64,000 nt of DNA from Alphaproteobacteria bacterium (GCA_965248915.1 OZ252216.1:3349889-3413888), one strand, 5' to 3'; counted from the first letter of the stretch, positions 33,860-61,832 are shown. Notes: generated by a model from the sequence alone, not told the origin. Program-made: numbers and translations.

Positions 33860-33872
33860 GGAAAGACAAGGT

Positions 33873-37701: not shown

Positions 37702-37704
37702 ACA

Positions 37705-45007: not shown

Positions 45008-46326
45008 GCAAATGACCTTGCTTCACGTGCGTAGGCTGCGGAAGATCTGAACAGATTGGTGGCCATCAAACTCGATTCAGCTTCGGCTCGCAGGTCGTAA
45101 AGGTCGCCGACGATTTTCTGAACCTCTGCATCTTCTGGCGCAGATTCAATGGCGTAGTCCGCAAGATGACAGGCAAGGCGCAAATCCCCGGTCTCCCCCA
45201 GTTTTTTGGCTCTTGCGGCAAGTGCCCTGGCACCTCCAGCTGCATCAGCTATTTCCTTTGCCACGTCACTTCGTGGTGCAGGCTTCAGCTCACTTGGCCG
45301 CCCGCTCCACCAACCGCCGTAGTAACGAATGACATTTCGTATGATGAATTCCGCCTCGTCATAGACGGGTTGAAGCCACGGAGAGTCACTTGATGGTGGT
45401 GTGACACTGCGCACAATATCGACATGTGGAGGCGACCCATTCTCCAGTTCAGAAAGTGTCTGAGAAACCAAGGAATCGAGATAATCTGCGGTTTCAAGGA
45501 GCATTGTTTGGAGCAAGTCCGGCTGATTGACGACCGGGCCGCCATGCCCGGGCCCCATGGAACGAGGTTTGTAAGCCGCCATTTGTCGCAGCCCATTGGC
45601 CCAATCCCAAGGATAGCGCTGAGCCTTCTGCGGATTGCCAGCGTTCGGCACTCCCCAAATAAAGAGATCTCCCGGACATAGCACTTCCCGCTCACGGCAA
45701 AACACCCAGGTATGATCGTCGGTTTCGCCGCGGCAGTGATGCAATTCGAAAGTCAATCCGCCTACAGTTAATGTCATTCGATCATCATAAAGGAGATTAG
45801 GTGGATATTCCGGCATGATGAAGGCCGATGCTCCAGGCTCAATATTAAAAACGGGGGCGCTCACGGTGCCACCCAACTGTCGCGCATTGATTGACTGGTT
45901 ATGAATCAACGTCTTTCCATAGCGAGTAAATCGCTCTGGCATGGCTCTTTGCCCAATAATCCTCGGTGTATTCTGTCCTTCAACTAGGAACTTAGCTAGG
46001 CCATACGCGTGATCAATGTGACCGTGCGTATAGACAGCCGTATGCACAGGGGATTTGGTCTCCTGTCTCAAGGCGGATGCCAGATTATCGGCGCGCCTAA
46101 CCAATCCCGTATCAACTAGTACGAGCCCTTCATCAGTTTCAAAAGCCGTGCAGCCACTTTGAAAAGACTGAAACCAGGTCTTGTCTGCAAGTTCCACGGG
46201 CCCTCCGGTCCAGAAGAAAGTCGCTTCTTCTGGACTCTTGCCTGCAAGTTTGCGGAAATTTTCTGTCGGATTTCTTGCCACAGTTTCACCTCGGGGGTTT
46301 TGATCACAATCGGCAGGTTTGAACAA
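45004..46326 (-). CDS. MBL-fold hydrolase with alkyl-sulfatase dimerisation-like domain (SdsA1-like, no SCP2 tail)
   Basis: Metallo-beta-lactamase motif YTHGHIDHAYG. The C-terminal block YYGGWWSGRPSELKPAP...GDLRLACHLADYAIESAPED resembles the alkylsulfatase dimerisation domain. Only 440 aa. Confidence 0.6.
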   Translation of the reverse strand: MFKPADCDQNPRGETVARNPTENFRKLAGKSPEEATFFWTGGPVELADKTWFQSFQSGCTAFETDEGLVLVDTGLVRRADNLASALRQETKSPVHTAVYTHGHIDHAYGLAKFLVEGQNTPRIIGQRAMPERFTRYGKTLIHNQSINARQLGGTVSAPVFNIEPGASAFIMPEYPPNLLYDDRMTLTVGGLTFELHHCRGETDDHTWVFCREREVLCPGDLFIWGVPNAGNPQKAQRYPWDWANGLRQMAAYKPRSMGPGHGGPVVNQPDLLQTMLLETADYLDSLVSQTLSELENGSPPHVDIVRSVTPPSSDSPWLQPVYDEAEFIIRNVIRYYGGWWSGRPSELKPAPRSDVAKEIADAAGGARALAARAKKLGETGDLRLACHLADYAIESAPEDAEVQKIVGDLYDLRAEAESSLMATNLFRSSAAYAREARSFA

Positions 46327-46433
46327 CTTCCTTTGTCGCGAACAAGCTTACTCGAACCGTCAAATCTGAAATCGATACCCAGGAAAATCAGGCCTGCCTT
46401 TTGGAGAATCTTTGGTTTTCAATAGTCCTCATA

Positions 46434-46477
46434 TTATCATAACGATAAATATACTTTATCATTATGATAATTTCAAT
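46434..46477. promoter_or_regulatory. 44-bp conserved element, copy B (candidate double operator)
   Basis: 42/44 identical to the reverse complement of 31161..31204. Contains TTATCAT-A-ACGATAA (46434-46448) and the perfect palindrome TTATCAT-T-ATGATAA (46456-46470), with centres 22 bp apart. Confidence 0.55.
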
Positions 46478-46522
46478 ACTATGGAAGAAGATCGTGTATC
46501 GCAATTTAATAGGAGATTGAAC

Positions 46523-47674
46523 ATGCAAACCAAGATTTGCCAGAGACTCGGCATCGACTTCCCCATATTCGCTTTTACCCATTGTCGAGATGTAGTAGCA
46601 GCGGTGACCAATGCTGGGGGCTTTGGTGTATTGGGTGCGGTGGGATTTTCTCCTGATCAACTACGAATCGAACTTGACTGGATTGACGAGCACGTCAATG
46701 GCAAGCCATACGGCATCGACGTAATCATCCCAAATCGATATGAAAACCAAGATGAAAAGGATCCTGAAAAGCTACGCAGTATAATAAGCGCTGCAATCCC
46801 GCAAGGACACAGGGACTTTGCGGACGAGCTGTTAGATGCCCATGGTGTGCCACGTTTGCCGGGGGGTCAAAAAACGCGAGATCAGCTTATGATGACGGAA
46901 GCCACTTCCACACCGCTCATTGATATTGCTTTGGAGCACGAGAATGTCAAAATGGTTGCGAACGCACTCGGCACGCCACCGCCGGAGGTTATCAAGCAGA
47001 TTCAAGATTCGGGCCGGATGGTAGGCGCTCTGTGCGGCTCGCCGAAGCACGCCAAACGCCACGTTGAGGCTGGCCTTGACTTCATCGTGGCCCAAGGGGG
47101 CGAAGGTGGTGGTCACTGCGGCGAAATCGGCAGCTCCGTCTTGTGGCCGGAAGTAGTGGAGATCGCGGGAGATATCCCGGTTATTGCCGCTGGGGGTATT
47201 GGCTCTGGTAGCCAAATGTACGCCGCACTAGCAGTAGGCGCTCAAGGGGTTTGGTGTGGTTCGATATGGCTCACGGTGGCGGAATCAAACACCGATGAAG
47301 TCAAGCGGGAACGGCTACTAGAAGCAAGTAGCTCGGATACAGTCCGCACCAAGAGCTATACCGGCAAATATGCTCGTATGCTGCGCACACCCTGGACCGA
47401 CGCTTGGGATTCAGATAAAGATCCCAAGCCCTTAGCGCCTCCTATGCAGATGATGGCTGTGCGAAATGCAATGCGCCGAATGAGCAAGTTTCCCAAGCAA
47501 GCACGAGACGTAATGTTTGTTCCGGTCGGTCAGATTGTTGGGCGCATGAACCAGACGATGGGTGCGAGACAGCTCATTTCGGAAATCGTAGATGAATACA
47601 TTGAAGCTCACGAGAGAATGTGCGCGCTGATACCCTCGGGCGAAGAGTCTTCTCGCCAATTCGAAAGCAATTGA
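46523..47674 (+). CDS. nitronate monooxygenase (NMO/2-nitropropane dioxygenase) family flavin oxidoreductase
   Basis: ATG at 46523 preceded by AGGAGA. Motifs GFGVLGA, IVAQGGEGGGH and VIAAGGIGSG. Confidence 0.85.
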   Translation: MQTKICQRLGIDFPIFAFTHCRDVVAAVTNAGGFGVLGAVGFSPDQLRIELDWIDEHVNGKPYGIDVIIPNRYENQDEKDPEKLRSIISAAIPQGHRDFADELLDAHGVPRLPGGQKTRDQLMMTEATSTPLIDIALEHENVKMVANALGTPPPEVIKQIQDSGRMVGALCGSPKHAKRHVEAGLDFIVAQGGEGGGHCGEIGSSVLWPEVVEIAGDIPVIAAGGIGSGSQMYAALAVGAQGVWCGSIWLTVAESNTDEVKRERLLEASSSDTVRTKSYTGKYARMLRTPWTDAWDSDKDPKPLAPPMQMMAVRNAMRRMSKFPKQARDVMFVPVGQIVGRMNQTMGARQLISEIVDEYIEAHERMCALIPSGEESSRQFESN

Positions 47675-47675
47675 A

Positions 47676-48482
47676 ATGTCCCATTTGGTTTACGAAAAAA
47701 GGAACGGAATAGCCTATCTCACAATGAATCGTCCTGATCGTAGTAATTCTTTGAGTCCGCAAATGATAGTTGAAATGGCTAAAGCTTGGAGTGACTTCAG
47801 GGACGATGAAGATGCGCGAGTCGCCGTACTGACCGGCGCCGGTGACAGAGCGTTTTGTTCTGGCGCAGATCTGGGTTTGCTAATTCCATTGATGTCCCGT
47901 GCTCGCCAGCCGGAAGATGAGTACGACGAAGCATTCTTAAAAGACAGATCATTGATACAGACCGCATTGTTGCGTGACTTCAAGCTCTACAAGCCGGTCG
48001 TTGCAGCGATTAACGGGTTTGCGCTTGCTGGCGGTATGGAGATCATCCAAGCGACAGACATAAGACTTGCAGCACCAGGAAGTGAGTTCGGCCTGTCCGA
48101 GGTGATGCGGGGGATTGTTCCTGCGGGGGGGTCGCTCGTTCGGTTGGCCAGGCAAATTCCATACTGCAAGGCTATGGAGGTACTATTGATTGGCGATCGA
48201 ATGAATGCCGCCGAAGCATTGCGTATTGGACTGATCAATGAAGTTGTCTCAGATGGCACATTGATGGACAGAGCGGAGGAAATAGGACAGCGGATAGCAG
48301 ACAATGGGCCATTGGCGGTTGCGGCATGCAAGGAAGCCGTCCTTCGCACCAGCGGAATGCCCTTAAAGGAGGCATTTGCTATTGAGAGTGAGATTGGTGC
48401 CATGATCTTGCGTTCCAAAGATGCCGTTGAGGGCCCTCGGGCATTTATGGAAAAGCGAAAACCCGATTTTACTGGGACGTGA
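47676..48482 (+). CDS. enoyl-CoA hydratase/isomerase (crotonase) family
   Basis: IAYLTMNRPDRSNSL and AVLTGAGDRAFCSGADL. 1-bp gap after the NMO gene. Confidence 0.9.
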   Translation: MSHLVYEKRNGIAYLTMNRPDRSNSLSPQMIVEMAKAWSDFRDDEDARVAVLTGAGDRAFCSGADLGLLIPLMSRARQPEDEYDEAFLKDRSLIQTALLRDFKLYKPVVAAINGFALAGGMEIIQATDIRLAAPGSEFGLSEVMRGIVPAGGSLVRLARQIPYCKAMEVLLIGDRMNAAEALRIGLINEVVSDGTLMDRAEEIGQRIADNGPLAVAACKEAVLRTSGMPLKEAFAIESEIGAMILRSKDAVEGPRAFMEKRKPDFTGT

Positions 48483-50006: not shown

Positions 50007-50234
50007 GGGGCCTTGTTTCTTGTTGTCTGCTAATCACAAAGATTGGGTACTGGATCCAGTATAGCCTCGGCGAGTATGACAATTTTCATATCGAGTCAAG
50101 TAATACATGAAAACTGAGTAAGACTTGACAAATTGATTTGACGGGCTCAAGTTCTAATCATGAACAGGTGGTGATGCCACCCTTGCCGTATCCTTTGGCC
50201 TGTAGTGCCTTTGCCCCTTGGGATGGAGCCCGAC

Positions 50235-51377
50235 ATGTTACGACCACCGCTTGAAGAACATGAAATCTTCCGCAATTCGGTGACCGAGTTTGTTGAGCGT
50301 GAGGTGAAGCCGAATGCACTTGAATGGGACCGGGCCGGCGAAGTTCCACGTGAGCTGTTCGAGAAGCTTGCCAGTCTCGGGTTTCTCGGCGTTCGTCTGT
50401 CCGAAGATGTCGGCGGCGCCGGTCTCGACTTTTGGTACACGACCATCCTGTTGCAAGAGCTAATGCGTTGCGGTTTGGTTGGCGTTCCAGTGGCCGTAAT
50501 GGCCCATGCCGAGTTCGCCACTAAAGTCATTGATCGCGAAGGATCTGAGGAACTGCGTAAGCGATTTGTCGCTGCCGCGGTGCGAGGAGAGAAAGTCGGA
50601 TCTCTGGGTGTCACCGAACCGGGCGCTGGCAGTGATGTCGCCGCCATACGCACCAAGGCTGTGCGCGACGGCGACGAATATGTGATCAATGGCGCCAAGG
50701 TCTTCATCACCAATGGGACGATCTCTGATTTCGTCACGACGGCGGTTCGCACAGGTGGTGAAGGATACAAGGGCGTCTCGCTTGTCGTTGTACCAACGGA
50801 CACGCAAGGGCTTAGCCGGCGCCGGTTACAGAAAACTGCGACCCATGCCTCAGATACCGCAGAAATCATATTCGACAATGTGCGCGTGCCGGTGGGTAAT
50901 CTGGTCGGCGAGGAGGGAAAAGGCTTCCGTTACATTATGCAAGGTTTCGAGGGTGAGCGCTTAGTGCTTTCCGTCATCGCTTGCAGCCAAATGCGGCTGA
51001 TGTTCGAAGAGGCGCGTGGATGGGGCCATGACCGTAAGGCTTTCGGTCAGTCATTATTGGGTTTCCAGGTTTGGCAGCACCGCTTGGCCGATGTCATAAC
51101 CGAAATCGCAGCCGCAGAAGCGTTGACCCAGCGTGCCATCGAACTCTATGTCGATGGCCAACCGGCCAATGCAGAAATCTCCATGGCCAAGCTTTTCGCG
51201 ACCGAGAAGGCCCGTCATGTGGCGCACGAGTGCGCTCAGATTTTCGGCGGTATGGCACTCATGGAGGAGACGTCAATGGCGCGGCTCTACCGCGATTGCA
51301 TGGGCTTCACCATCGGTGCCGGCACCAGTGAAACGATGAGAAACATCATCGCTAAAACGAATGACTTGATGGTCTGA
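50235..51377 (+). CDS. acyl-CoA dehydrogenase
   Basis: Start MLRPPLEEHEIF preceded by GGAG. Motifs GVTEPGAGSD, FITNGT and C-terminal IGAGTSETMRNIIAK. Confidence 0.9.
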   Translation: MLRPPLEEHEIFRNSVTEFVEREVKPNALEWDRAGEVPRELFEKLASLGFLGVRLSEDVGGAGLDFWYTTILLQELMRCGLVGVPVAVMAHAEFATKVIDREGSEELRKRFVAAAVRGEKVGSLGVTEPGAGSDVAAIRTKAVRDGDEYVINGAKVFITNGTISDFVTTAVRTGGEGYKGVSLVVVPTDTQGLSRRRLQKTATHASDTAEIIFDNVRVPVGNLVGEEGKGFRYIMQGFEGERLVLSVIACSQMRLMFEEARGWGHDRKAFGQSLLGFQVWQHRLADVITEIAAAEALTQRAIELYVDGQPANAEISMAKLFATEKARHVAHECAQIFGGMALMEETSMARLYRDCMGFTIGAGTSETMRNIIAKTNDLMV

Positions 51378-51387
51378 GGGGCGATAA

Positions 51388-52464
51388 ATGGGGCCAAAGA
51401 GAGAAATGCTTGCACATGTCAGCGGTGTCGCCACCGTCGGACCGGTGGTGCACGATCCCCGGTCGATACCTGAGGTCGTCCTTGAAGCGGTTGAAGCTGC
51501 GCTCGCTGATGCCAATCTCACATATGACGACATCGATGCTGTTGTAACGGCGTCGGTGGACCTATTCGATGGACTTACTGCTTCGAACATTGCCGTTACC
51601 GAGGTTGTCGGTGCGGTGATGAAACCTGAAACTCGCATTGCCGCAGATGGACTCTGTGCATTCATACATGGCGTCGCGCAGGTCTGCGCCGGTGCATACA
51701 AGACTGTACTCGTAGTCGCTCACTCAAAGCCATCTCTTTCGAATTTTGATGACATTACCCTTTGGGCCATGGAGCCGGTCTTCTCCCAATCACTGGGTTT
51801 GGATTTCAAATCCGCTGCTGGACTGCAGGCGGCGAACATTGCTGCCCAAGACAAGGATGCTGTGCACCGGTGGGCTGAACTAGTATCTGCGCGCCGTGCC
51901 GCAGCCAGCGGCGGCATTGCTGGTACAGTTTCGGTTCAGGAGGTTCTCGACTCCGAAATTATCGCCTCCCCTCTACGAAAAGAAATGGTAGCGCCTTTTG
52001 GAGACGGAGCTTGTGCGGTTGTCTTGAGCAAAAGCGACCTCTCTCATTCTAATGAGGTGGGAGTTGTTGTCTCAGGTGTAGGTCATGACCTGGCCCCGCA
52101 CGCTCTCGGCGATCGTAATCTGACGAGGCTCGATGGGTTGACGCGTGCATGTAACCGAGCCTATGGCATCGCCGGTATCGAAAAGCCATCAGAGTGTTTT
52201 GATCTCGCGGAACCGTCCGCAATCTATCCGCATGAAGAGGAGTTGTTTGCATCTGCTGCCGGGTTCGGCCCTGCGGTTTCTCTCTCACCGGGGGGAGGTC
52301 TATTCGCAGGCCACGTTCCCGTTGCAGCCGGTCTTACACGTTTGGTCGATTGCGTTCGGTTCATTCGCAGCAATAGCGATTGCCACCGCGCCATGGCTCA
52401 TGGCGCTTGGGGGCCTGCTGGGCAAGGTCAGGCGGTCACTGTACTCGAAAGGATGATCCCATGA
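51388..52464 (+). CDS. thiolase-fold protein A (no canonical nucleophile by eye)
   Basis: Thiolase-like blocks DIDAVVTASVD, CAVVLSK and SPGGGLFAGHVPVAAG. The C-A-S-G position reads A-A-D-G. SD GAGGGG lies upstream. Confidence 0.65.
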   Translation: MGPKREMLAHVSGVATVGPVVHDPRSIPEVVLEAVEAALADANLTYDDIDAVVTASVDLFDGLTASNIAVTEVVGAVMKPETRIAADGLCAFIHGVAQVCAGAYKTVLVVAHSKPSLSNFDDITLWAMEPVFSQSLGLDFKSAAGLQAANIAAQDKDAVHRWAELVSARRAAASGGIAGTVSVQEVLDSEIIASPLRKEMVAPFGDGACAVVLSKSDLSHSNEVGVVVSGVGHDLAPHALGDRNLTRLDGLTRACNRAYGIAGIEKPSECFDLAEPSAIYPHEEELFASAAGFGPAVSLSPGGGLFAGHVPVAAGLTRLVDCVRFIRSNSDCHRAMAHGAWGPAGQGQAVTVLERMIP

Positions 52465-53615
52465 AGCGCGTCGGTATCATCGGCACCGGTCAAACCAAAC
52501 ATACGCGCCTGCGCGACGATGTGAATCAGTCCGAACTTGTGCGTGAAGCTGCAGCACGGGCTCTCAGCGATGCTGGTATAGATTCTCACGAAATTGATGC
52601 CGTCGTAATATCAAACATGGAGCTTTTTGAAGGCCGCGCGTTTCCCGAGTTGTGGGTCGGGGAGGGTGCCTTTGCATTGGGCAAGCCATGCATGAAAGTA
52701 GCGACAGGCGGAACGTCCGGCACAAGTTCCTGCATTGCAGGTTACCATCAAGTGGCTTCCGGCCTATTTGACATTGTTCTCGTCGTTGGATTCGAGAAAC
52801 ACTCCGAAGGCCACACTCAAGCTGGTATGGCCCTCGTCGATCCATTTTGGGATCGAGCCGTTGCCTCCGGCGCCCTTGGAAATTTCGCACTTTCAATATC
52901 GCAATACATGGCCGAGCGTGGTGTCACAGAAGACCATGCTGCCAAAGTTGCCGTGAAAGCGAGACGCAATGGGGCGCTCAATCCGCACGCCCATTTGCAG
53001 AATGCGGATGTGACGATTGAGGATGTCTTGCAATCGAAGATGTTGGCCTATCCGGTTCGCATGCTTGACATGTGTCCTCAGTCGGATGGTGCATGTGCCA
53101 TTGTTTTGGCGAGTGAAGACCGCGCGGAAGCTCTCTGCGATCGCCCGGCATGGATTGAGGCCGCCGCAACCCGCCATCAGCAACCCTATATCGGCGACAT
53201 AGAGCGTCGTCTGGTGACAATGGAAACCCTGCGAGATGCAGCACGCGAAGTATATGACAAAGCCGGTATCACGGATCCATTGCACGACTTCGACGTAGCG
53301 GAAATCTATGAGCCTACGACCTACGCCGAACTCGCCTGGTATGAGGCCCTTGGTTTTTGTCAGGAAGGTAAGGCGGGAGATCTGATTGATAGTGGCATCA
53401 CCGAAATTGGTGGAACGATGCCGGTCAATCCGTCGGGCGGTGTATTGTGTGCCAATCCGGTTGGGGCCACTGGGGTCGTTCGGATTGCCGAGGCTGCAAA
53501 GCAGATCCTGGGACGAGCAGGAGACTATCAAATCGATGGTGCGACCACTGCGTTGGCCACAGGCTACGGTGTTTATGCTTGGGCTGATGCAATGATCTTG
53601 CGGGGGGCGGCATGA
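52461..53615 (+). CDS. thiolase-fold protein B, SCP-x-like (no canonical nucleophile by eye)
   Basis: MKRVGIIGTGQTKH, VVGFEKHSEG and VNPSGGVLCANPVGATG. The C-A-S-G position reads G-T-S-G, and the GHP position reads ANP. ATGA overlap with protein A. Confidence 0.8.
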   Translation: MKRVGIIGTGQTKHTRLRDDVNQSELVREAAARALSDAGIDSHEIDAVVISNMELFEGRAFPELWVGEGAFALGKPCMKVATGGTSGTSSCIAGYHQVASGLFDIVLVVGFEKHSEGHTQAGMALVDPFWDRAVASGALGNFALSISQYMAERGVTEDHAAKVAVKARRNGALNPHAHLQNADVTIEDVLQSKMLAYPVRMLDMCPQSDGACAIVLASEDRAEALCDRPAWIEAAATRHQQPYIGDIERRLVTMETLRDAAREVYDKAGITDPLHDFDVAEIYEPTTYAELAWYEALGFCQEGKAGDLIDSGITEIGGTMPVNPSGGVLCANPVGATGVVRIAEAAKQILGRAGDYQIDGATTALATGYGVYAWADAMILRGAA

Positions 53616-54064
53616 CCGGCGGCAGGACCATTACCCACGAAATGAACTTGACTTGGGCCTATGCGTCAGGCGCCGCTATGGAACGGTTCAGTGAGGGATT
53701 GAAGGCGCGGCGCATTGAGGCGATAAAGTGTGGCAACTGCAATCGACGATACTTGCCACCTCGCCCCTTCTGCGGTCGTTGCAACGAGCGTATTGCCGAG
53801 TGGGTGCCTGTGGCCGATGAGGGTGTACTTGAGGCCTGGACGGTAATGTATCTACCCATCATCGATGGGCGCACCGGCGAGATGCGCGAACCGCCCTACG
53901 GCATGGGACTTATCCGCCTCGATGGTGCAGATACCACACTTAACCACTACTTGGCAGAAAGCGATCCGCAGACCTTGGCCGTTGGACAACGTGTCCGTGC
54001 CGTTTGGCGCGACGAACTTCACGGTGCCATGGATGATATCTTGCACTTTGAGGTGATGCGATGA
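53612..54064 (+). CDS. DUF35 Zn-ribbon/OB-fold protein A
   Basis: CGNCNRRYLPPRPFCGRCN ribbon plus an OB-like tail. 4-bp overlaps on both sides. Confidence 0.8.
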   Translation: MTGGRTITHEMNLTWAYASGAAMERFSEGLKARRIEAIKCGNCNRRYLPPRPFCGRCNERIAEWVPVADEGVLEAWTVMYLPIIDGRTGEMREPPYGMGLIRLDGADTTLNHYLAESDPQTLAVGQRVRAVWRDELHGAMDDILHFEVMR

Positions 54065-54474
54065 TCCGCGAGGGAAGCATAAAACTCCCCTTTGCTTTCG
54101 CGGTAGGCGAGGCGGCGAGTAAGGTCCTTGAGGCGATAGAGGAGCGGCAGGAGATATTGGGGTCTCACTGTTTCGCCTGCGATGAGGTTTTCGCTCCCGC
54201 ACGTTCTTTTTGTCCCGGATGCGGAACATCCGACCTGACAACACGGCTGGTCGGCCCGGGGGGAACTCTTCGGGCGTGGACAGATGTGCCAGGGCGGGGG
54301 GTCTTCGGTCTCATTTTGCTCGATGGTGCAAGTCGCCCTTGGGTTCACAACCTGATTGGAGACCGTAACCAATTTGGCGTCGGTGTGCGGGTTGAAGCAC
54401 GCTTCAGCCCAATTCAGGGAGATCCGAGTAAAGCGGCACTTGTCGGGTTCGAGCATATGGAGGCCGCACAATGA
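54061..54474 (+). CDS. DUF35 Zn-ribbon/OB-fold protein B
   Basis: CFACDEVFAPARSFCPGCG ribbon plus an OB-like tail. 4-bp overlaps on both sides. Confidence 0.75.
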   Translation: MIREGSIKLPFAFAVGEAASKVLEAIEERQEILGSHCFACDEVFAPARSFCPGCGTSDLTTRLVGPGGTLRAWTDVPGRGVFGLILLDGASRPWVHNLIGDRNQFGVGVRVEARFSPIQGDPSKAALVGFEHMEAAQ

Positions 54475-55262
54475 CAGTTCGCACCGAACGTCAAGACGGA
54501 ACACTGATTGTCACAATTGATCGACCCGAAGCGCGAAATGCCCTCAATGCTGAGGCGCGGCAGAGGTTAAACGAAGCCTGGTTGGCGTTTCGAGACGATG
54601 ACGATTTGCGGGTCGCTATACTTACCGGCGCCGGAGACAAGAGTTTCTGTGCTGGGGCTGATTTGAAGGAAATGGGCGACTACTACAAGTCCATGACGCC
54701 AATCGAACGCCGCGAACGAGGCGAACGAGAGGTGGGACTTGGGGGGCTTACGCGCAATTTCGATGCCCGCAAACCCATCATCGCGGCGATCAACGGTCAC
54801 TGCTTGGCTGGTGGACTGGAGCTGGCCTTAGCATGTGACATTAGGATTGCCGTATCCCACGCGACCTTCGGACTACCTGAGGTTAAGCGTGGCATATTGC
54901 CCGGCGCAGGCGGCACACAGCGATTGCCACGAAGCGTTCCGTTTGGCGTTGCGCTTGAGATGATCCTAACAGGCGCACCGATCTCGATTGATGACGCGCT
55001 CAATTGGGGACTTGTTAGCCATGTCGTTGAGTCGGAGAGGCTGCTCGATGAAGCGCTTCGCATCGCCTCGTTAATTGCCGCTAACGGCCCGCTTGCAGTG
55101 CGCGCCGCGCGTGATGCCGTCTATCAAGGGATTTCTTTGCCACTCGTTGAAGCGCTGCGACTCGAGCAATTCCATGCCGAACCTTTGCGTCAAACGCAAG
55201 ACGCGCAAGAAGGCGTGCGTGCCTTCATCGAAAAACGCGTCCCGAAATTCAAAGGAAGATAG
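54471..55262 (+). CDS. enoyl-CoA hydratase/isomerase (crotonase) family
   Basis: LIVTIDRPEARNALN and AILTGAGDKSFCAGADLKE. Confidence 0.9.
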   Translation: MTVRTERQDGTLIVTIDRPEARNALNAEARQRLNEAWLAFRDDDDLRVAILTGAGDKSFCAGADLKEMGDYYKSMTPIERRERGEREVGLGGLTRNFDARKPIIAAINGHCLAGGLELALACDIRIAVSHATFGLPEVKRGILPGAGGTQRLPRSVPFGVALEMILTGAPISIDDALNWGLVSHVVESERLLDEALRIASLIAANGPLAVRAARDAVYQGISLPLVEALRLEQFHAEPLRQTQDAQEGVRAFIEKRVPKFKGR

Positions 55263-55266
55263 CGAT

Positions 55267-56046
55267 ATGGTCAACCAACACATAAAAACCACCTCAGAGA
55301 ATCGAATTCTTCGCATTACCTTGAACCGACCCGACATTTTGAATGCGCTGAATGCAGAAATGTTGGAAGAAATCCATGCCGCCGTGATAGCCGCCGAAGC
55401 AGATGAATCTGTTCGCGTTCTGTTAGTCGACTCTGCGAGCGATCGATCTTTTTCCGCTGGAATTGATGTTGCCTATGTCAAGGACATGGATGCCTTTGGC
55501 TCGCGCGCCATGGGTCAGCTGCTTCATAAGGTTTTCTTAGGCCTTAGGACTGTGAAGAAGCCTGTCGTTTGTTCGATCGATGGCCTGTGTTTAGGCGCCG
55601 GCCTTGAGCTTGCACTGTCTTGCGATTTCATGATCGCGTCGGATCGTTCACGCTTTGGATTACCTAACATTCATCGCGGTATTCCCGCCATCGTCGAAGC
55701 TGCAATACTTCCTATCGCCATTGGCATCCAGGGCACGCGTGAACTCTGTTATTTGGGTGAGTTTTGGGATGCTGAAAAGGCCGAGCGCCGTGGGCTCGTG
55801 CAAGCGATTCATGCATCCAAAAATCTCGCGCAAGAAGTCGACACGCTTTGTCGGACTCTTGCGGAAAAGAGCCCCTTCGCGCTTGAGACCCAAAAAGAAA
55901 TTATTCACAAATGGATGACGACAGATCTTGAGAGTGCCATCGACTTCTCGATCAATACAGTGGGGTTGAACTGGCTCACCAAGGATCAAAAGGAAGGCAT
56001 GCAATCGTTTGTCGACAAGAGGTCGGCTAAGTTCAAAGGGGAGTGA
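55267..56046 (+). CDS. enoyl-CoA hydratase/isomerase (crotonase) family, divergent
   Basis: Start MVNQHIKTTSENRILRITLNRPDILNALN. The oxyanion region reads SASDRSFSAGIDV. Confidence 0.85.
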   Translation: MVNQHIKTTSENRILRITLNRPDILNALNAEMLEEIHAAVIAAEADESVRVLLVDSASDRSFSAGIDVAYVKDMDAFGSRAMGQLLHKVFLGLRTVKKPVVCSIDGLCLGAGLELALSCDFMIASDRSRFGLPNIHRGIPAIVEAAILPIAIGIQGTRELCYLGEFWDAEKAERRGLVQAIHASKNLAQEVDTLCRTLAEKSPFALETQKEIIHKWMTTDLESAIDFSINTVGLNWLTKDQKEGMQSFVDKRSAKFKGE

Positions 56047-56051
56047 AGTTT

Positions 56052-56927
56052 ATGACAAAGACCATCATCACTTGCGCTCTCACGGGGGCACAACAGGGCA
56101 AGGAAGCCAATCCCGCACTACCCGAACAACCGCAAGAGATTATCGAGGCGGGTATCGGAGCATGGCGGGCTGGTGCTGCAATCCTACACATTCACGCACG
56201 CGACAAACAGGGCAAAGCCTCAAGCGACGTTGATACGTTGCGCACCATTGTCAATGGCTTGAAAGAGAGCGGGTGCGATGCAGTAATCAACCTAAGCACT
56301 GGGGGTGCCATTGCTGGATTGCCGTTAGATGAGCGCATTCGATGTGTCCCAGAATTGAAGCCAGAGATTGGCTCTTTTAGTGTTGGTGGTGGGTCGTTGC
56401 TTGGGCGATACGATACTACTGATGGCGAGTGGCGCGGCGATCGATTTGTTCCGCTGTTTTCGTCCCATAGCGAACTCGAACGCGTGGCGAAGATATTTCA
56501 AGAAAATGATGTTCGCCCCGAACTCGAAGTCTATCACTCCGGCATGTTGAACAATATCGCTGCACTCAAAGATCGTGGCGTTCTTGATCAGCCTCTGCTT
56601 GCCAATATCGTGATGGGCATTCCGGGAGAAACCACGAAGGCGGAAGTAAAGAACCTCCTTTATATGGTTGAGGGCCTGCCACAAGACACACAGTGGCTGG
56701 TTTCCGCAATTGGGGCTCGCAATCATTTTCGTATGTTGGGCGCGGTGGTCTCTATGGGAGGCCATGTCCGTGTCGGGCTTGAAGACAATGTCTACATTTC
56801 GGCAGGCAAGCTTGCCTCATCTAATGCCGAGCTCGTGGAAAAAGCTGTGCGCATACTGCGCGAACTGGGCGCCGATCCTGCCAGTCCTGAAGATACGCGG
56901 GACATATTGAAACTTCCAAGGAGATAG
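56052..56927 (+). CDS. BKACE (beta-keto acid cleavage enzyme, DUF849) family protein
   Basis: MTKTIITCALTGAQQGKEANPALPEQPQEIIEAGIGAWRAGAAILHIHARD matches the family N-terminal TIM-barrel signature. Confidence 0.8.
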   Translation: MTKTIITCALTGAQQGKEANPALPEQPQEIIEAGIGAWRAGAAILHIHARDKQGKASSDVDTLRTIVNGLKESGCDAVINLSTGGAIAGLPLDERIRCVPELKPEIGSFSVGGGSLLGRYDTTDGEWRGDRFVPLFSSHSELERVAKIFQENDVRPELEVYHSGMLNNIAALKDRGVLDQPLLANIVMGIPGETTKAEVKNLLYMVEGLPQDTQWLVSAIGARNHFRMLGAVVSMGGHVRVGLEDNVYISAGKLASSNAELVEKAVRILRELGADPASPEDTRDILKLPRR

Positions 56928-56932
56928 GACAC

Positions 56933-57787
56933 ATGACACGGAAAAAGATCGCCATTGATGCATGGGCAACATATGTCAGCCCTGAAGGGGCGACGCGGTG
57001 GCCGGAAGAGTTCATTCACATCTTCAATAAGTACCGATCACCCAAAATCATGACAGAAGGTCAACCGGTTGAAAATATGATTGCGGAAATGGACGAGGCC
57101 GGGGTCGATAAGATCATCTTGTCCTCGTTTTATTACAAAGGCGATCCGGTCATGACCAATGAGGAAGTCTCAGTTCTGGCCAAAGACTATCCTGACCGAT
57201 TCATTCCGGCCGGAACCGTCAACGTCATGGACAAACCGATGAAGGTTGCGGCAGACGTGGAGTATCTAGTCAAGGAACTTGGCATGTGCTGCATTCGGCT
57301 TGAGCCCTACATGTATGGAGACGGCATGACCGGGCTGGCGCCGAACGACAAGCACTACTGGCCGGTTTACATTAAGTGCTCTGAGCTGGGTGTGCCGGTA
57401 GCTCTACAGGTTGGTCATACAGGACCCCTGCTTCCGTCGGAATGTGGGCGGCCCATCTATCTCGACGAAGTGGCGCTTGCCTTCCCTGATCTCACAATCA
57501 TCGGCTGTCATCTCGGTCAACCTTGGCATGAAGAGATGATGACCCTGGCCTGGAAGCATCCCAATGTCTACGTTGAAACTTCTGCGCGGGGTCCACGGCA
57601 ATGGCCACAGAACTTCATCGAGTACGTCAAGTCTTGGGGGCAAGACAAGGTGATTTGGGCCACTGACTACCCGCTACTTACTTTCGACCGTACCTTGAGC
57701 GAGCTTGAGGATTTGGGTGTGTCAGATGAGATCTATCGCAAGGTCACCCGCGACAACCTCATTCGCGCCTTTGGATTGGATCTTTAG
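56933..57787 (+). CDS. amidohydrolase_2 (ACMSD/LigI-like) family metal-dependent hydrolase
   Basis: IAIDAWATY N-terminus, GCHLGQPWHEE and IWATDYPL motifs. Confidence 0.75.
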   Translation: MTRKKIAIDAWATYVSPEGATRWPEEFIHIFNKYRSPKIMTEGQPVENMIAEMDEAGVDKIILSSFYYKGDPVMTNEEVSVLAKDYPDRFIPAGTVNVMDKPMKVAADVEYLVKELGMCCIRLEPYMYGDGMTGLAPNDKHYWPVYIKCSELGVPVALQVGHTGPLLPSECGRPIYLDEVALAFPDLTIIGCHLGQPWHEEMMTLAWKHPNVYVETSARGPRQWPQNFIEYVKSWGQDKVIWATDYPLLTFDRTLSELEDLGVSDEIYRKVTRDNLIRAFGLDL

Positions 57788-57790
57788 GAG

Positions 57791-58225
57791 ATGGGCGTAC
57801 AAGGACTACTTGCCACAATACCTTACGTTGTCTGGCACGAGATTGAGGTGCTTGAGGAGAGCGAGATCGCGTTTGAGATGCGCCTCAGGAATCGTCCGGA
57901 AGTGCATAACTATGTGGGAACCATGCATGCTGGAGCACTCTACACTCTGGCTGAAACGGTGGCGGGAGTGGCGGCCGACAGGTTTGCAGGCGATCAGAAT
58001 GCTTTCATTTTGTTGCGGGACGCAAGTGTTCACTACACCCGCAGGGCGGAAGGGGATATTATTGCTCGATCATTCATCGACCCTTCTAATCTCCGTACTG
58101 CCACAGATGAAATGAAGGAAAATGGTCGGGCTATTATACAGGTGAGTATTTCGGCCCGCGACACCTCCGGCGAAACGGTGTTTGAGGGATCATTTACATA
58201 CGCATTGAGACCGAGGAAACAATGA
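57791..58225 (+). CDS. PaaI/YiiD-like hotdog-fold thioesterase
   Basis: 144 aa. HNYVGTMHAGALYTLAETVAGVAA matches the PaaI-type motif region. Confidence 0.7.
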   Translation: MGVQGLLATIPYVVWHEIEVLEESEIAFEMRLRNRPEVHNYVGTMHAGALYTLAETVAGVAADRFAGDQNAFILLRDASVHYTRRAEGDIIARSFIDPSNLRTATDEMKENGRAIIQVSISARDTSGETVFEGSFTYALRPRKQ

Positions 58226-59001
58226 GTGACAAGCTGTTACAAGAAGTCGATGCGGGCGTTCTGACGTTGACTTTGAACCGTCCAGACAAACTCAACGCAA
58301 TCGACTTTGAACTACTTGACGATTTGGTTGCCGCATTGGAAAGAGCTGGAGACGATTCGGAAGTTGGTGCAATCGTATTGGCCGGAGCAGGAAAAGTCTT
58401 TTGCGCGGGCGCTGACATCGGTCAAATGGTAGATCGATCACCAGGTGAGTGGGAGGCGATTGTCGATCACTATCTCGACCCCATCCGATTGATCTCCACC
58501 ATCGAAAAACCGGTGATTGCGCGTTGCCACGGCAATGTGGTTGGCGGTGGGTTAGGGCTTGCTTTAGCCAGCGACTTTAGGATCGGCGCTGAGGGCTCTC
58601 GATACTGCGCACCCTTTATCAAGCTGGCGCTGGCCGGCTGCGATATGTCGGCTGGGTATTTTCTGCCACGACTTGTTGGACTCGGGTCTGCCACCGATAT
58701 GATGATGACCGGTCGCTTCGTTGAGGCTGAGGAGGCTGTGCAAATCGGTCTGATCTCGCGGTTGGTTCCTGAGGTGGATCTCAATGCGGCTGTGATGGAA
58801 TTGGCGGCGAGCTTCGCTCAGGGCCCGAAGGAAGCGATTGGATTTACCAAGAAGGCAATCCGCCGATCGCTCGATCGCGATATGGCCGGAGAATTCGATT
58901 ACGAGATCTACGCTCAAGTGCAATGCCTGCAAAGCGATGAACACAAGGAAGGTGTGGCGGCCTTTCTGGAACGACGTGCGCCGAATTTCGGCACGCGTTA
59001 G
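58222..59001 (+). CDS. enoyl-CoA hydratase/isomerase (crotonase) family
   Basis: VLTLTLNRPDKLNAI and IVLAGAGKVFCAGADI. 4-bp overlap with the thioesterase gene. Confidence 0.88.
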   Translation: MSDKLLQEVDAGVLTLTLNRPDKLNAIDFELLDDLVAALERAGDDSEVGAIVLAGAGKVFCAGADIGQMVDRSPGEWEAIVDHYLDPIRLISTIEKPVIARCHGNVVGGGLGLALASDFRIGAEGSRYCAPFIKLALAGCDMSAGYFLPRLVGLGSATDMMMTGRFVEAEEAVQIGLISRLVPEVDLNAAVMELAASFAQGPKEAIGFTKKAIRRSLDRDMAGEFDYEIYAQVQCLQSDEHKEGVAAFLERRAPNFGTR

Positions 59002-59010
59002 GAAAACACC

Positions 59011-60153
59011 ATGAATGACCCGACTTTGAGTGAAGAGCAAAACCAGTTTCGCGACAGCGTAAGACTATTCGTCAACAAAGAAATCTTACCTCACGCCACG
59101 AAATGGGATTTGGCTGAAAGGTATCCGCAGGAGCTTTTCAAAATATTTGGCGATCTTGGATGGCTGGGTGTTTCATTTCCAGAAGAGTATGGTGGCTCAG
59201 GCGGCGGTTCGGTTCTTTACGCCATCTTGAACCGTGAACTTGCACGCGGGTCTGCTGCGGTCTGTTTGGGGCTTTACGTGCATACGGCACTGGCAGCGTC
59301 GGCTATTCTGCATTTAGGAACAGAGAACCAAAGGAAACACTATTTGCCGCCCCTAATGAAAGGTGTGAAGGTCGGATGTTGGGCATATGCCGAGCCCGGC
59401 GCCGGCGCTGACGTCTCGAGCGCGCGTCTGCGAGCGACGCGCGACGGCGATGAGTATGTCCTATCTGGAACGAAAATGTATATTACCAATGCGCCGTTTG
59501 CCGATCTCATGATTGTGGTGGCGGCGACAAAGCCTGACGCGGGTCTCAAAGGGTTATCCCTTTTCATGGTTGAGGCGGGGACTGAAGGCGTCACCGTCAA
59601 TGCGCCGCTGAAGAAACTCGGCATGGGCGCGTCCGAGATGGCGGAGATCGTATTTGAGAATGCGCATGTTCCGGAATCAGCGCGGCTTGGGCCGGAAGAA
59701 GGTGGGTTTTTTCAGGCGCTGCGCGTTTTGACACTCGGTCGAATCGCGAGTGCTGGACTTGGTGTCGGTCTTGGGACTGCAGCACTGGAAACGGCGCAAG
59801 GCTACACGAGCGAGCGCGTTCAATTCGGCAAGCCGCTCGCCAAACAACAGTTCGTCCGCTTCACCTTGGCGGAGATGGTGACACGGCTTGAGGCAGCCTG
59901 GCAATTGACCTTACATACGGCACGGCTTGTTGACGCCGGCGAACCTCATGACAAAGAAGCTTCTATGGCCAAGCTCTTTGCGACGGAGGCGTGTACCTGG
60001 ACTTGCGAACGCGCACTGCACCTATGTGGTGCGCAAGGCTACATGAGGGAGAGCCCGGCACAGCGCTTTTACCGAGACTGCAAGGTGCTCGAAATTGGCG
60101 AGGGTACAAGTGAAATTCAGCGCGAGACCATAGCTCGACATTTGGGAGTATAA
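59011..60153 (+). CDS. acyl-CoA dehydrogenase
   Basis: AYAEPGAGADV, YITNAP and C-terminal EIGEGTSEIQRETIARHLG. Confidence 0.92.
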   Translation: MNDPTLSEEQNQFRDSVRLFVNKEILPHATKWDLAERYPQELFKIFGDLGWLGVSFPEEYGGSGGGSVLYAILNRELARGSAAVCLGLYVHTALAASAILHLGTENQRKHYLPPLMKGVKVGCWAYAEPGAGADVSSARLRATRDGDEYVLSGTKMYITNAPFADLMIVVAATKPDAGLKGLSLFMVEAGTEGVTVNAPLKKLGMGASEMAEIVFENAHVPESARLGPEEGGFFQALRVLTLGRIASAGLGVGLGTAALETAQGYTSERVQFGKPLAKQQFVRFTLAEMVTRLEAAWQLTLHTARLVDAGEPHDKEASMAKLFATEACTWTCERALHLCGAQGYMRESPAQRFYRDCKVLEIGEGTSEIQRETIARHLGV

Positions 60154-60156
60154 GTC

Positions 60157-60771
60157 ATGGGCGTAAGTGAACGGCGACAGCGAGAAAGGCAAGCGCGGCG
60201 ATCTTCAGTGATCGATGCGGCGCGCGGTTTACTGCTTGAGAAGGGCTTCAATGGCGCCACGACGAAACAAATCGCCGAAAGATGCGAACTTTCCGAAGCA
60301 ACACTGTTCTTTTACTTCAAAAACAAGGATGAAATCCTGAGTTCAATTCTGTTTGAGAGCATTGATTTTTGGGCGGAAGGGTTCAACAAAGTAGCTGGCG
60401 CCAAACTCCAACCCGATAATAAGCTGGCGCGGCTTTGGAAGTTTTTCAAGAAGGTGAGAGAGGAGCATCCTGAATACTTTTTTGTCTCCGCTTATCTAGC
60501 TCGACCGTATGCCATGGCAGATGTGTCGGACGAAATAAAGAACAAGATCGTGGATAAGTCCGGTGAGAATTTCCAAAGATTGGCTGCGATCTTGGAAGAC
60601 ATTACGGGTCGTAGCGATGGACGCATAATGGCGGATTTCGTGTGGTCAACCTTCTTAGGTCTCATGGTTTTGCGGGATTCCCGCGATAATCTTAACTCGA
60701 CGCCGCACCCGAGCGATCGGGATCTTGTTGCCATTTTCGATATGTTGAAAACGAGTATTTTGGCGCGCTGA
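60157..60771 (+). CDS. TetR-family transcriptional regulator
   Basis: VIDAARGLLLEKGFNGATTKQIAERCELSEATLFFYFKNKDEIL HTH region. Confidence 0.85.
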   Translation: MGVSERRQRERQARRSSVIDAARGLLLEKGFNGATTKQIAERCELSEATLFFYFKNKDEILSSILFESIDFWAEGFNKVAGAKLQPDNKLARLWKFFKKVREEHPEYFFVSAYLARPYAMADVSDEIKNKIVDKSGENFQRLAAILEDITGRSDGRIMADFVWSTFLGLMVLRDSRDNLNSTPHPSDRDLVAIFDMLKTSILAR

Positions 60772-60785
60772 ACTGGAGATATGAG

Positions 60786-61832
60786 ATGAGTGAAATGATG
60801 GCAGCCCGACTTATTGCACCCGGCGAACCGCTCCGAGTTGAGTCTGTTCCCATTCCGGAACCGGTCAGCGGCGAAGTGTTGGTCAAGGTCAGCGCCTGCG
60901 GTCTCTGTGGCACAGATATTCACTTGGCCATTGATGGGGACATTCCCGTTGAGCGCACTCCAATCACTCTTGGTCATGAATCGGCGGGTACCATCACGTC
61001 TTTGGGCGAAGATGTCGATGACTTTGCAATAGGAGACCGCGTTGCGCTTTTCCCATCGGCCAATTGTGGCGTTTGCGACTATTGCCAGGCGGGAAGACAG
61101 TCTCTTTGCGACCGGTCACGGGTCTATGGTATGGCTCGCGATGGCGGTCTTGCACAATACGTAACTGCGCCAGCACATTCATTGATCCGGATCCCAGATT
61201 CAGTTTCCTTCGAGATTGCAGCGATCATCACAGACGGCGTTTCGACGCCGTTTCATGCACTGAGGGACCGGGGAAATTTGCGGCCAGACGAAAGTGTTGC
61301 GGTTGTCGGATGTGGTGGCCTTGGCACCCATGCAATCATGTTGGCTAGACTACTAGGCGCGGGTAGAATCGTCGCTATTGATGTGCAGCAACCTGCACTT
61401 GAGCGAGCCTTGGCGCTTGGAGCGGATCTTGCCATCAACCCAATGGAACAGGATCCAGCAAAAACCATCCGTAGCGAGCTTGGAATTCGGGGTGTCGATC
61501 TAGCACTTGAATTTGTCGGTGCGGCGAGAACTGCTGAGACGGCCATGAGTGTTTTGGGTAAGTCCGGGCGTGCCGTTTTGGTTGGTGTTGGAATGGAGCG
61601 GCCATCCTTGCCGCCGCTCTTGCGATTTGTCGGCATGGAACAAACGATTCTCGGTTCGTTTGGTATGAACAAACAGGACATTGAAGACTTGCTCGCTCTT
61701 GTTGATGAAGGAAGACTCGATCTGTCGCAATCGGTCTCTGCCAAATTTCCATTGAACAATGTCAATGATGCTCTGGCGACACTCGTGCGCAAAGAAGTTG
61801 GTGTTGTCCGGGTGGTTGTGGAGCCCAATTAA
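60786..61832 (+). CDS. zinc-dependent alcohol dehydrogenase (MDR family)
   Basis: CGLCGTDIH, GHESAGTITSLGEDV, a structural-Zn cluster CGVCDYCQAGRQSLC and GCGGLG. Confidence 0.88.
   Translation: MSEMMAARLIAPGEPLRVESVPIPEPVSGEVLVKVSACGLCGTDIHLAIDGDIPVERTPITLGHESAGTITSLGEDVDDFAIGDRVALFPSANCGVCDYCQAGRQSLCDRSRVYGMARDGGLAQYVTAPAHSLIRIPDSVSFEIAAIITDGVSTPFHALRDRGNLRPDESVAVVGCGGLGTHAIMLARLLGAGRIVAIDVQQPALERALALGADLAINPMEQDPAKTIRSELGIRGVDLALEFVGAARTAETAMSVLGKSGRAVLVGVGMERPSLPPLLRFVGMEQTILGSFGMNKQDIEDLLALVDEGRLDLSQSVSAKFPLNNVNDALATLVRKEVGVVRVVVEPN

Follow-up and report, generated by a model that had tools for sequence, protein, structure and literature searches.

Four overlapping genes for thiolase-fold and DUF35 proteins

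The window analyzed here is a stretch of 64,000 nucleotides from an Alphaproteobacteria bacterium (GCA_965248915.1, OZ252216.1:3349889-3413888). Four consecutive genes in this window, designated A, B, D1 and D2, encode two different thiolase-fold proteins, both devoid of the nucleophilic cysteine of thiolases, followed by two DUF35 proteins, and their sequences suggest that the four products are probably the subunits of a single enzyme that cleaves carbon-carbon bonds. The genes are located as follows:

51388-52464, + strand: A, 358 amino acids (aa), a divergent Cys-less thiolase-fold protein of the Ltp4-like type
52461-53615, + strand: B, 384 aa, a Cys-less SCP2-type thiolase-fold protein of the Ltp3-like type
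53612-54064, + strand: D1, 150 aa, a DUF35 protein with a zinc ribbon and an OB fold
54061-54474, + strand: D2, 137 aa, a divergent DUF35 paralog with a zinc ribbon and a shortened OB part

The A/B, B/D1 and D1/D2 junctions, as well as the junction between D2 and the next gene, ECH1, each consist of a 4-base ATGA overlap. The initial annotation had described the genes as chained by ATGA/GTGA overlaps; ATGA was found at all of the junctions and GTGA at none, the only possible GTGA start being that of a downstream gene, BKACE. The start of B was placed at ATG 52461 on the evidence of its homologues and of the ATGA coupling, while a mechanical list of open reading frames (ORFs) gives TTG 52380, which lies 81 bases upstream and within A. 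From 50205 to 61832, the + strand carries every long ORF, and neighboring ORFs overlap by, or are separated by, a few bases. Among the sequencing runs searched, the sequence was present in the source sample only.

Protein B was recognized by Pfam as Thiolase_N plus Thiolase_C_1, above the cut-off, and in NCBIfam it scored 403.6 bits against PRK08313 (cut-off 514) and 160 bits against the BbsB model (cut-off 750). When B was aligned by phmmer with several solved SCP2-thiolases, including 6hsj, Gly84 was opposite the nucleophilic cysteine (T-G-G-T-S-G versus N-N-C-S-T-G), Y283-E-P-T was opposite H-D-C-F and A-N332-P was opposite G-H-P. B is without all three thiolase signatures: the nucleophile Cys, the HDCF/NEAF loop and the GHP histidine. 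The replacement residues are encoded at the following positions:

52710-52712, + strand: codon of B Gly84, at the position of the nucleophile Cys; Gly in 56 of 57 sequences, with a gap in one
53307-53315, + strand: B Tyr283-Glu284-Pro285, which replaces the H-D-C of HDCF; invariant in 57/57
53454-53456, + strand: codon of B Asn332, which replaces the GHP histidine; invariant in 57/57

An earlier alignment by hand, in which the nucleophile motif read A-A-D-G in A and G-T-S-G in B, was borne out by the profile and phmmer comparisons, as was the ANP of B in place of GHP, and a rigorous alignment run for a hidden nucleophile Cys found none in A or B. Since both proteins are Cys-less and the residues that have replaced the signatures of B (G84, Y283-E284-P285 and N332) are invariant across phyla, the site appears to be repurposed and non-thiolytic, as the initial annotation had proposed.

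The motif that reads HDCF in SCP2-thiolases reads YDCF in SLP, YDCY in Sal and YDHF in Ltp2, and the motif tyrosine is the catalytic base of the retro-aldol reaction (Ltp2 Tyr294, Sal Tyr302), the general acid being Tyr344 in Ltp2 and Cys304 in Sal (PMC12329534). B has a tyrosine, Tyr283, at the first HDCF-equivalent position, as in the Ltp2/Sal-type retro-aldolases, and because the equivalent of the Ltp2 (YDHF) and Sal (YDCY) base is retained, an aldolase reading is reasonable. The first motif residue and the residue at the GHP histidine position are 50 residues apart in 6hsj (H306/H356), Ltp2 (Y294/Y344) and Sal (Y302/Q352), and from this spacing Asn332 of B would occupy the position of Ltp2 Tyr344 and Sal Gln352. 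The site of B looks like that of an aldolase in which the base has been kept and the acid relocated. B is also the most conserved protein of the gene cluster, which, together with the invariant tyrosine at the position of the Ltp2/Sal base, suggests that it is probably the catalytic, retro-aldolase subunit.

Protein A gave a sub-threshold hit only in Pfam (ACP_syn_III, 20.5 against a cut-off of 24), and its best NCBIfam match, PRK07937, reached 127.4 bits (cut-off 419). A profile of 25 sequences of the A family matched archaeal and SCP2-type thiolases in the PDB (best E 3.6e-15), aligning the C-A-S-G of the M. thermolithotrophicus thiolase with A85-A86-D87-G88 of A, H-D-C-F with S277-A-I-Y and the GHP histidine with V310. 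The nucleophile position was occupied by A85, or by I84 in one alignment, in a region without a conserved Cys, and H309 and C90 of the A protein in the window were not conserved in the family (25-sequence alignment). There is no Tyr, His or Cys at the catalytic positions of A, the motif tyrosine being replaced by Ser277, and in a table of the motifs the nucleophile loop is three residues shorter. A is probably a non-catalytic partner, a reading based on the lack of a Tyr-like residue comparable to that of B and on the shortened nucleophile loop.

The AlphaFold2 model of A had a mean predicted local distance difference test (pLDDT) value of 82.9 and a predicted template modeling (TM) score of 0.87. 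Foldseek matched it with a probability of 1.00 to DUF35-associated thiolases, with TM scores of 0.74-0.83 (archaeal thiolase 6et9, 0.83; BbsB, 0.80; Sal, 0.76; Ltp2, 0.74). One segment of the protein stood out:

51562-51645, + strand: A residues 59-86, LFDGLTASNIAVTEVVGAVMKPETRIAA, where conservation within the A family is highest; the stretch ends at the former nucleophile position, A85

These residues are nearly invariant across phyla in the 25- and 51-sequence alignments, and they are the sole internal region with a pLDDT <50 in the monomer model, a combination that would be expected if the segment needed a partner in order to fold. The corresponding segment of thiolase folds continues into the dimer interface and active-site elbow. 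Residues 59-86 may form an interface loop or act in trans.

The A family is small and distinct, with about a dozen 50%-identity clusters scoring >250 bits, followed by a continuum (173 clusters at E <1e-30), and most of its members are annotated 'hypothetical protein'. One protein, P0177, has an A-like N-terminal region with the Y-E-P and A-N-P signature of B and a 130-residue Lys/Ala-rich C-terminal tail, and may be an intermediate or ancestral form. Two others, P0220 and P0264, were considered as long A-like fusions and rejected, as they were read as frameshifted A-B neighbors.

Both DUF35 proteins matched the zinc ribbon PF12172 above the cut-off and both keep the C-x2-C-x10-C-x2-C ribbon that the initial annotation had noted. 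The ribbon cysteines, Cys40, 43, 54 and 57 in D1 and Cys37, 40, 51 and 54 in D2, are invariant in all 57 sequences of each family. In Pfam, D1 consists of zf-ChsH2 and OB_ChsH2_C (OB 53.9 bits, cut-off 27.1), while D2 has zf-ChsH2 only, with no OB-domain hit. BLASTP gave 31% identity between D1 and D2 over the ribbon and OB parts, D2 being short by 14 residues of the OB hairpin.

Distribution of the module and related systems

In a scan limited to one genome per species, 73 loci were found to encode a relative of A, all of them from metagenome-assembled genomes (MAGs). They belong to Alpha-, Beta-, Gamma- and 'Delta'-proteobacteria, Acidimicrobiia, Solirubrobacterales, Gaiella, Thermoanaerobaculia and other Acidobacteria, as well as to Nitrospirae, Chloroflexi, Rokubacteria, Methylomirabilia, Myxococcota and one Bathyarchaeia MAG. 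When the window proteins were used for a tblastn census, A was followed by B, D1 and D2 in every related locus of sufficient length, and complete B, D1 and D2 genes were present in 56 independent genome loci from >10 phyla. The locus of the Candidatus Bathyarchaeia MAG (570-4328) has two thiolase-like and two DUF35 genes and ECH1, with an Amidohydro_2 gene upstream; the presence of the module in an archaeal MAG reflects either horizontal transfer or a binning error.

The fraction of positions that were at least 90% conserved was 51% in B, 29% in D1, 20% in A and 14% in D2. When nine proteins of the cluster were compared, the mean pairwise distance was smallest for B (0.32) and largest for D2 (0.86). 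The pairwise distances of these four proteins co-vary more than the rest of the cluster would account for (partial r 0.35-0.59), which is weak evidence in favor of one assembly. A and B are 28% identical, and both the A/B and the D1/D2 pair are best described as ancient duplications kept by selection. The possibility raised with the initial annotation, that one pair is a recent tandem duplicate undergoing decay, was rejected on the basis of the 28% and 31% identities, the invariant residues and the conservation of the genes across phyla.

Relatives of like composition were reached by tblastn of plasmid records with A. In Tsukamurella tyrosinosolvens and Streptomyces, an OB-fold protein of 309-313 aa with two OB_ChsH2_C stretches (Pfam) is followed by two thiolase domain proteins of ~355 and ~390 aa, and Nocardia farcinica has the same arrangement of a double-DUF35 protein and two thiolase-like proteins. 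The second Tsukamurella protein scored 593 bits against PRK07937 (cut-off 419) and the third 734 bits against PRK08313 (cut-off 514), models that we take to represent M. tuberculosis Ltp4 and Ltp3 from the synteny and the protein lengths. On the same grounds, the actinobacterial loci are regarded as being of the Rv3521-ltp4-ltp3 type. The Tsukamurella-type neighborhood also includes an F420-dependent oxidoreductase, a nitronate monooxygenase, a crotonase and an AMP-binding enzyme. This neighborhood resembles that of M. tuberculosis, where the order is fadD19, echA19, Rv3520c, Rv3521 (a conserved hypothetical), ltp4 (Rv3522) and ltp3 (Rv3523) (PMC6429209). According to PMC6273163, which cites Wilbrink 2012, ltp3 and ltp4, called aldol-lyases, are genetically required for the degradation of C24-branched sterol side chains.

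Hidden Markov models (HMMs) of the window families gave ~380 bits for B on the Ltp3-like proteins and 165-184 bits for A on the Ltp4-like proteins. In the motif table, the B/Ltp3-type signature (T-[GA]-G, Y-x-P and N-P) recurs across these systems, while the A/Ltp4-type signature consists of a short D-[GA] loop, a variable HDCF loop and an AH..G..Q C-terminal loop. Both subunit signatures are also found in Cupriavidus and Simplicispira. Plasmid pBB1 of Cupriavidus necator N-1, a cultured strain, carries an A-like, a B-like and two DUF35 genes, split and ordered as in the window (L078, 7782-11219), in a stretch that is unannotated in the collection used, and a Simplicispira suum plasmid has a 3+2 arrangement of A-like, B-like, DUF35, third thiolase-like and DUF35 genes (L076, 6343-10770).

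The Ltp3/Ltp4 loci resemble the locus in the window in that two different Cys-less thiolase-fold proteins and two DUF35 units are encoded side by side, with an EchA19-like hydratase nearby. There are three differences: 1) the DUF35 proteins in the window are encoded by separate genes after the thiolase-like genes, whereas the actinobacterial ones form a fused protein before them, 2) in the Tsukamurella and Streptomyces proteins read, the N-terminal DUF35 half has lost the Cys ribbon, while D1 and D2 both keep it, and 3) the context is a different gene cluster, with BKACE and Amidohydro_2 and without steroid genes. The D2-family HMM matched both halves of the actinobacterial double-DUF35 proteins. 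An orthology of D1 and D2 to the individual halves was considered and no assignment was made, as both halves score alike with both HMMs, the D1 HMM including fused sequences. Single-ORF fusions of D1 and D2 were also found in four unrelated MAGs, where assembly errors are possible but the cases are independent:

L030, 10811-11713: D1-D2 fusion
L045, 12479-13390: D1-D2 fusion
L061, 12159-13115: D1-D2 fusion
L047, 12225-13634: D1-D2 fusion

Taken with the fused actinobacterial form, these fusions suggest that two DUF35 units work in one assembly. The L047 fusion, from Acidobacteria, has a GNAT acetyltransferase domain between its two DUF35 units (Pfam).

Among the characterized DUF35 systems, Ltp2-ChsH2 (6ok1), a steroid C3 side-chain aldolase, shares with B the Cys-less SCP2-thiolase fold, the DUF35 partner and the Tyr base at the HDCF position. 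It differs in being a homodimer with one kind of DUF35 protein and in its active site, which has YDHF and a second catalytic residue, Tyr344, where B has YEPT and an asparagine at the Tyr344 position. The benzoylsuccinyl-coenzyme A (CoA) thiolase BbsAB (7pxp), which ranks third among the PDB sequence matches of B (E 3.7e-42), likewise has an SCP2-type subunit and a separate DUF35 subunit; however, BbsB is a true thiolase and there is one type of each subunit. BbsB keeps the catalytic Cys, and both BbsAB and Ltp2 are alpha2beta2 assemblies. Two different thiolase-fold proteins are combined with DUF35 in PhlABC and MucABC (5m3k, 9vbo) and in the archaeal complex of thiolase, 3-hydroxy-3-methylglutaryl-CoA (HMG-CoA) synthase and DUF35 (6et9), all of which were among the top structural neighbors of A. 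In these complexes, the thiolase-fold proteins form separate homodimers and the catalytic subunits use a Cys nucleophile, for example PhlA Cys88. They differ from the module in the window by having a single DUF35 type and by the Cys nucleophile, which is absent from A and B; neither protein can be assigned to the PhlABC/MucABC group, as neither has a catalytic Cys like that of beta-ketoacyl-acyl carrier protein synthase III.

Sal-Shy (9myr), a bile-acid C5 side-chain aldolase, has the Tyr base and, at the GHP histidine position, the amide of Gln352, comparable to Asn332 of B. Sal needs Cys304 (YDCY) as the acid, where B has a proline; it is also a homodimer, and the hydratase Shy contributes the DUF35 as one of its domains. 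The Sal-ShyDUF35 complex is an alpha-beta-beta-alpha tetramer in which two DUF35 units flank the dimer, one per protomer (PMC12329534), so the statement in the initial annotation that the known systems use one DUF35 unit per thiolase-fold dimer was incorrect. With one DUF35 per protomer in the known systems, the 2+2 module would keep the usual 1:1 ratio and differ from them in consisting of two paralogous pairs. In the literature searched, the characterized DUF35-associated aldolases, Ltp2 and Sal, are homodimeric with one DUF35 type only. Full-text searches of a collection with few subscription journals turned up no report on a heteromeric thiolase-like enzyme with two DUF35 units, on an Ltp3-Ltp4 complex or on the 14-gene cluster described below. 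The initial annotation, which was aware of no characterized example of the composition, was only partly right about its novelty: there are genomic precedents in the actinobacterial loci, the D1-D2 fusions and C. necator N-1, although these searches yielded no biochemical or structural work on such a heteromer.

The 14-gene cluster and the proposed reaction

The four genes belong to a cluster of 14, which in most loci has the syntenic order ACAD1-A-B-D1-D2-ECH1-ECH2-BKACE-Amidohydro_2-hotdog thioesterase-ECH3-ACAD2-TetR-Zn-dependent alcohol dehydrogenase (Zn-ADH). In Acidimicrobiia and Chloroflexi, these genes are divided between two divergent blocks. In addition to A, B, D1 and D2, the cluster in the window comprises:

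50205-51377, + strand: ACAD1, acyl-CoA dehydrogenase, the first gene of the cluster, directly upstream of A in most loci (Pfam Acyl-CoA_dh_N/M/1)
54471-55262, + strand: ECH1, EchA19-like enoyl-CoA hydratase (Pfam ECH_1; NCBIfam EchA19 277 bits, below the cut-off of 400)
55267-56046, + strand: ECH2, crotonase-family protein (Pfam/NCBIfam, synteny)
56043-56927, + strand: BKACE, beta-keto acid cleavage enzyme (Pfam PF05853, 286 bits)
56933-57787, + strand: AH2, Amidohydro_2 metal-dependent hydrolase/hydratase/decarboxylase-family protein (Pfam PF04909)
57791-58225, + strand: TE, DUF4442 hotdog-fold putative thioesterase (Pfam)
58222-59001, + strand: ECH3, crotonase-family protein
59011-60153, + strand: ACAD2, acyl-CoA dehydrogenase
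60157-60771, + strand: TetR-family regulator
60786-61832, + strand: Zn-dependent alcohol dehydrogenase, the last gene of the cluster, distantly like the hydroxyacyl-CoA dehydrogenase Had and syntenic

ECH1 directly follows D2 in almost all loci. AH2 is among the proteins most conserved relative to the closest relatives (93-94% in two Alphaproteobacteria MAGs and 84% in a Woeseiaceae MAG); its nearest PDB entry is 3irs, Bordetella BB4693, the function of which is uncharacterized, while those of BKACE are 3lot, also uncharacterized, and Kce 2y7d. Searches of NCBIfam and the PDB with the neighboring genes for a clue to the substrate returned generic or uncharacterized matches only (AH2-3irs, BKACE-3lot, the sub-threshold EchA19, AcrC and Had-like matches). 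The cluster genes include no Cys-bearing (canonical) thiolase, no CoA ligase or transferase and no steroid genes. Known BKACE enzymes convert a beta-keto acid and acetyl-CoA to acetoacetate and a shortened acyl-CoA, a reaction that could supply a CoA ester without a ligase. The gene content suggests a branched or alicyclic substrate, and the cluster most likely specifies a breakdown pathway at whose center the A-B-D1-D2 enzyme sits.

The explanation that we favor, with a probability of about 0.6, is that A and B form the core of the enzyme, with one DUF35 protein per protomer, and that B, through Tyr283, catalyzes the retro-aldol cleavage of a 3-hydroxyacyl-CoA. The four proteins would then be the subunits of one DUF35-associated thiolase-fold carbon-carbon lyase, a heteromeric counterpart of the alpha-beta-beta-alpha Ltp2- and Sal-DUF35 enzymes and a distant relative of the Ltp3/Ltp4/double-DUF35 module, consisting of a pseudo-symmetric A-B dimer with a DUF35 protein capping each protomer. 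The 3-hydroxyacyl-CoA would originate, through the action of ACAD1 and the EchA19-like ECH1, from a branched or alicyclic acyl-CoA refractory to ordinary beta-oxidation by a dehydrogenase and thiolase. Tyr283 of B would abstract the proton of the beta-hydroxyl group, the bond between C-alpha and C-beta would break, and the products would be a ketone or aldehyde and an acyl-CoA enolate that is protonated to acetyl- or propionyl-CoA. A would act as a structural or substrate-shaping partner, with the loop 59-86 probably at the interface. The physical complex, its heterodimeric core, the identity of the catalytic subunit, the retro-aldol chemistry and the class of the substrate are all what we infer from sequence comparison and modeling. 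Paralogous pairs of thiolase-fold and DUF35 proteins would be expected if a homodimer had become an obligate heterodimer, with each DUF35 protein co-evolving with one face, and the strict co-occurrence, the translational coupling and the natural D1-D2 fusions are indirect evidence that favors one assembly.

Several observations weigh against this explanation. B is without the second catalytic residue of either characterized aldolase, having Pro285 at the position of Sal Cys304 and Asn332 at that of Ltp2 Tyr344. A has invariant Asp, Arg, His, Glu and Gln residues (25-sequence alignment), and its conservation leaves room for a catalytic or ligand-binding role of its own, which it may have. The two lines of evidence on which DUF35 protein belongs to which protomer, both of them weak, disagree, since the mirror-tree analysis pairs A with D1 and B with D2 (partial r 0.59 each), while the levels of conservation pair B with D1 and A with D2. 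A and B fall below the cut-offs of the Ltp4- and Ltp3-type NCBIfam models (127.4/419 and 403.6/514) and therefore are relatives of these families rather than members. Finally, separate A2 and B2 dimers are equally compatible with the sequences, because the PhlABC and archaeal complexes bridge homodimers by DUF35.

The last point leads to an alternative, possible though unlikely, in which two homodimeric units, A2 and B2, each with DUF35, carry out successive steps or form a PhlABC-like scaffold, and A has its own binding or catalytic role. The structural neighbors of A include subunits of such complexes (6et9, TM 0.83; PhlC, 5m3k; MucABC, 9vbo), many of its invariant residues are polar, the Simplicispira locus with three thiolase-like and two DUF35 genes indicates that the stoichiometry is flexible, and the D1-D2 fusions could equally tether two dimers. 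Nevertheless, A has no recognizable catalytic motif and its nucleophile loop is shortened, the best-conserved part of A comes out disordered when the protein is modeled as a monomer, suggesting a fold that depends on a partner, and the A- and B-type subunits are always paired across very distant lineages, which is the pattern of obligate heteromers. Steroid catabolism has obligate heteromers of this kind in ChsE1-ChsE2 and ChsH1-ChsH2. It is improbable that the reaction is a non-aldol conversion of a CoA thioester, such as carbon-carbon bond hydrolysis, decarboxylation, a Cys-independent acyl transfer or a biosynthetic Claisen-type condensation. B lacks the general acid of the known aldolases, and the cluster contains other unusual carbon-carbon bond enzymes (BKACE and Amidohydro_2) and three crotonases without an assigned role, as this alternative would have it; yet characterized thiolase-fold acyl transferases and condensing enzymes, such as PhlA, use the Cys nucleophile that A and B do not have, the neighboring acyl-CoA dehydrogenase and hydratase fit the delivery of a 3-hydroxyacyl-CoA, and the TetR control and the dehydrogenases indicate catabolism. 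Moreover, the characterized Cys-less members of the fold with a Tyr motif are all retro-aldolases (PMC12329534).

It is very unlikely that B and D1 alone constitute a classical 1+1 enzyme and that A, D2 or both are functionless relics of a tandem duplication. A and D2 are indeed the fastest-evolving proteins of the cluster and the OB domain of D2 is not recognized by Pfam. However, intact A and D2 ORFs accompany B and D1 in 56 loci of >10 phyla, A has a nearly invariant stretch of 37 residues, the four D2 cysteines are invariant, the A-type/B-type pairing also occurs in Actinobacteria and Betaproteobacteria, and the identities of 28-31% within the A/B and D1/D2 pairs are those of ancient duplications under selection. 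A bolder version of the heteromeric retro-aldolase explanation is rather doubtful: the enzyme would be an obligate heterotetrameric carbon-carbon lyase of an uncharacterized type in which A completes the B site in trans via residues 59-86, supplying the general acid lost from B, and it would serve an undescribed catabolic pathway without a CoA ligase, with BKACE transferring CoA to the substrate, encoded by a 14-gene operon with which uncultured bacteria of at least 10 phyla degrade an abundant branched or alicyclic compound.

The DUF35-associated thiolase-fold aldolases Ltp2 and Sal cut side chains that are beyond ordinary beta-oxidation and are of interest as biocatalysts. The locus and its relatives would define a second, heteromeric architecture made up of a B/Ltp3-type subunit, a degenerate A/Ltp4-type subunit and two DUF35 units, split or fused. 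This architecture appears to be ancient and widespread, with a distinctive active-site signature, and was foreshadowed by the genetics of Ltp3 and Ltp4, for whose long-uncharacterized step in phytosterol degradation it offers a testable structural hypothesis. The analysis also draws attention to a 14-gene pathway that is strongly conserved in uncultured Acidimicrobiia, Woeseiaceae, Alphaproteobacteria, Chloroflexi and others, and the similar 2+2 locus on pBB1 of C. necator N-1 provides a cultured route to experiments.

Other genes in the window

A classical 1+1 pair is located at 37300-38904 on the - strand, where a 399-aa Cys-less SCP2-thiolase-like protein is followed by a complete DUF35 protein of 133 aa. 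The nucleophile loop of the thiolase-like protein reads H-M-G-G-A-S and its motif is Y-D-C-F, as in Sal/SLP. The pair adjoins genes for a family III CoA-transferase, a crotonase and a TetR protein. With this pair and A-B-D1-D2, the genome has both the 1+1 and the 2+2 architecture.

A short way upstream of the cluster, the - strand at 42442-46326 encodes a TauD-family dioxygenase, a major facilitator superfamily (MFS) transporter and a metallo-beta-lactamase-type alkyl sulfatase (Lactamase_B + Alkyl_sulf_dimr), with genes for a TonB-dependent receptor (31376-33859) and for an acyl-CoA synthetase (34093-35715) located farther upstream. The genes at 31376-35715 and 42442-46326 suggest the uptake and desulfation of sulfated organic compounds; in other genomes, the TauD, MFS, sulfatase, TonB receptor and acyl-CoA synthetase genes are outside the conserved cluster. 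Between them and the cluster, at 46412-48482, a gene of the nitronate monooxygenase family is followed by a second EchA19-like crotonase (292 bits, below the cut-off). The nitronate monooxygenase and EchA19-like families are also represented beside the Ltp4/Ltp3-type genes on the Tsukamurella plasmid (L074), where they are divergently transcribed.

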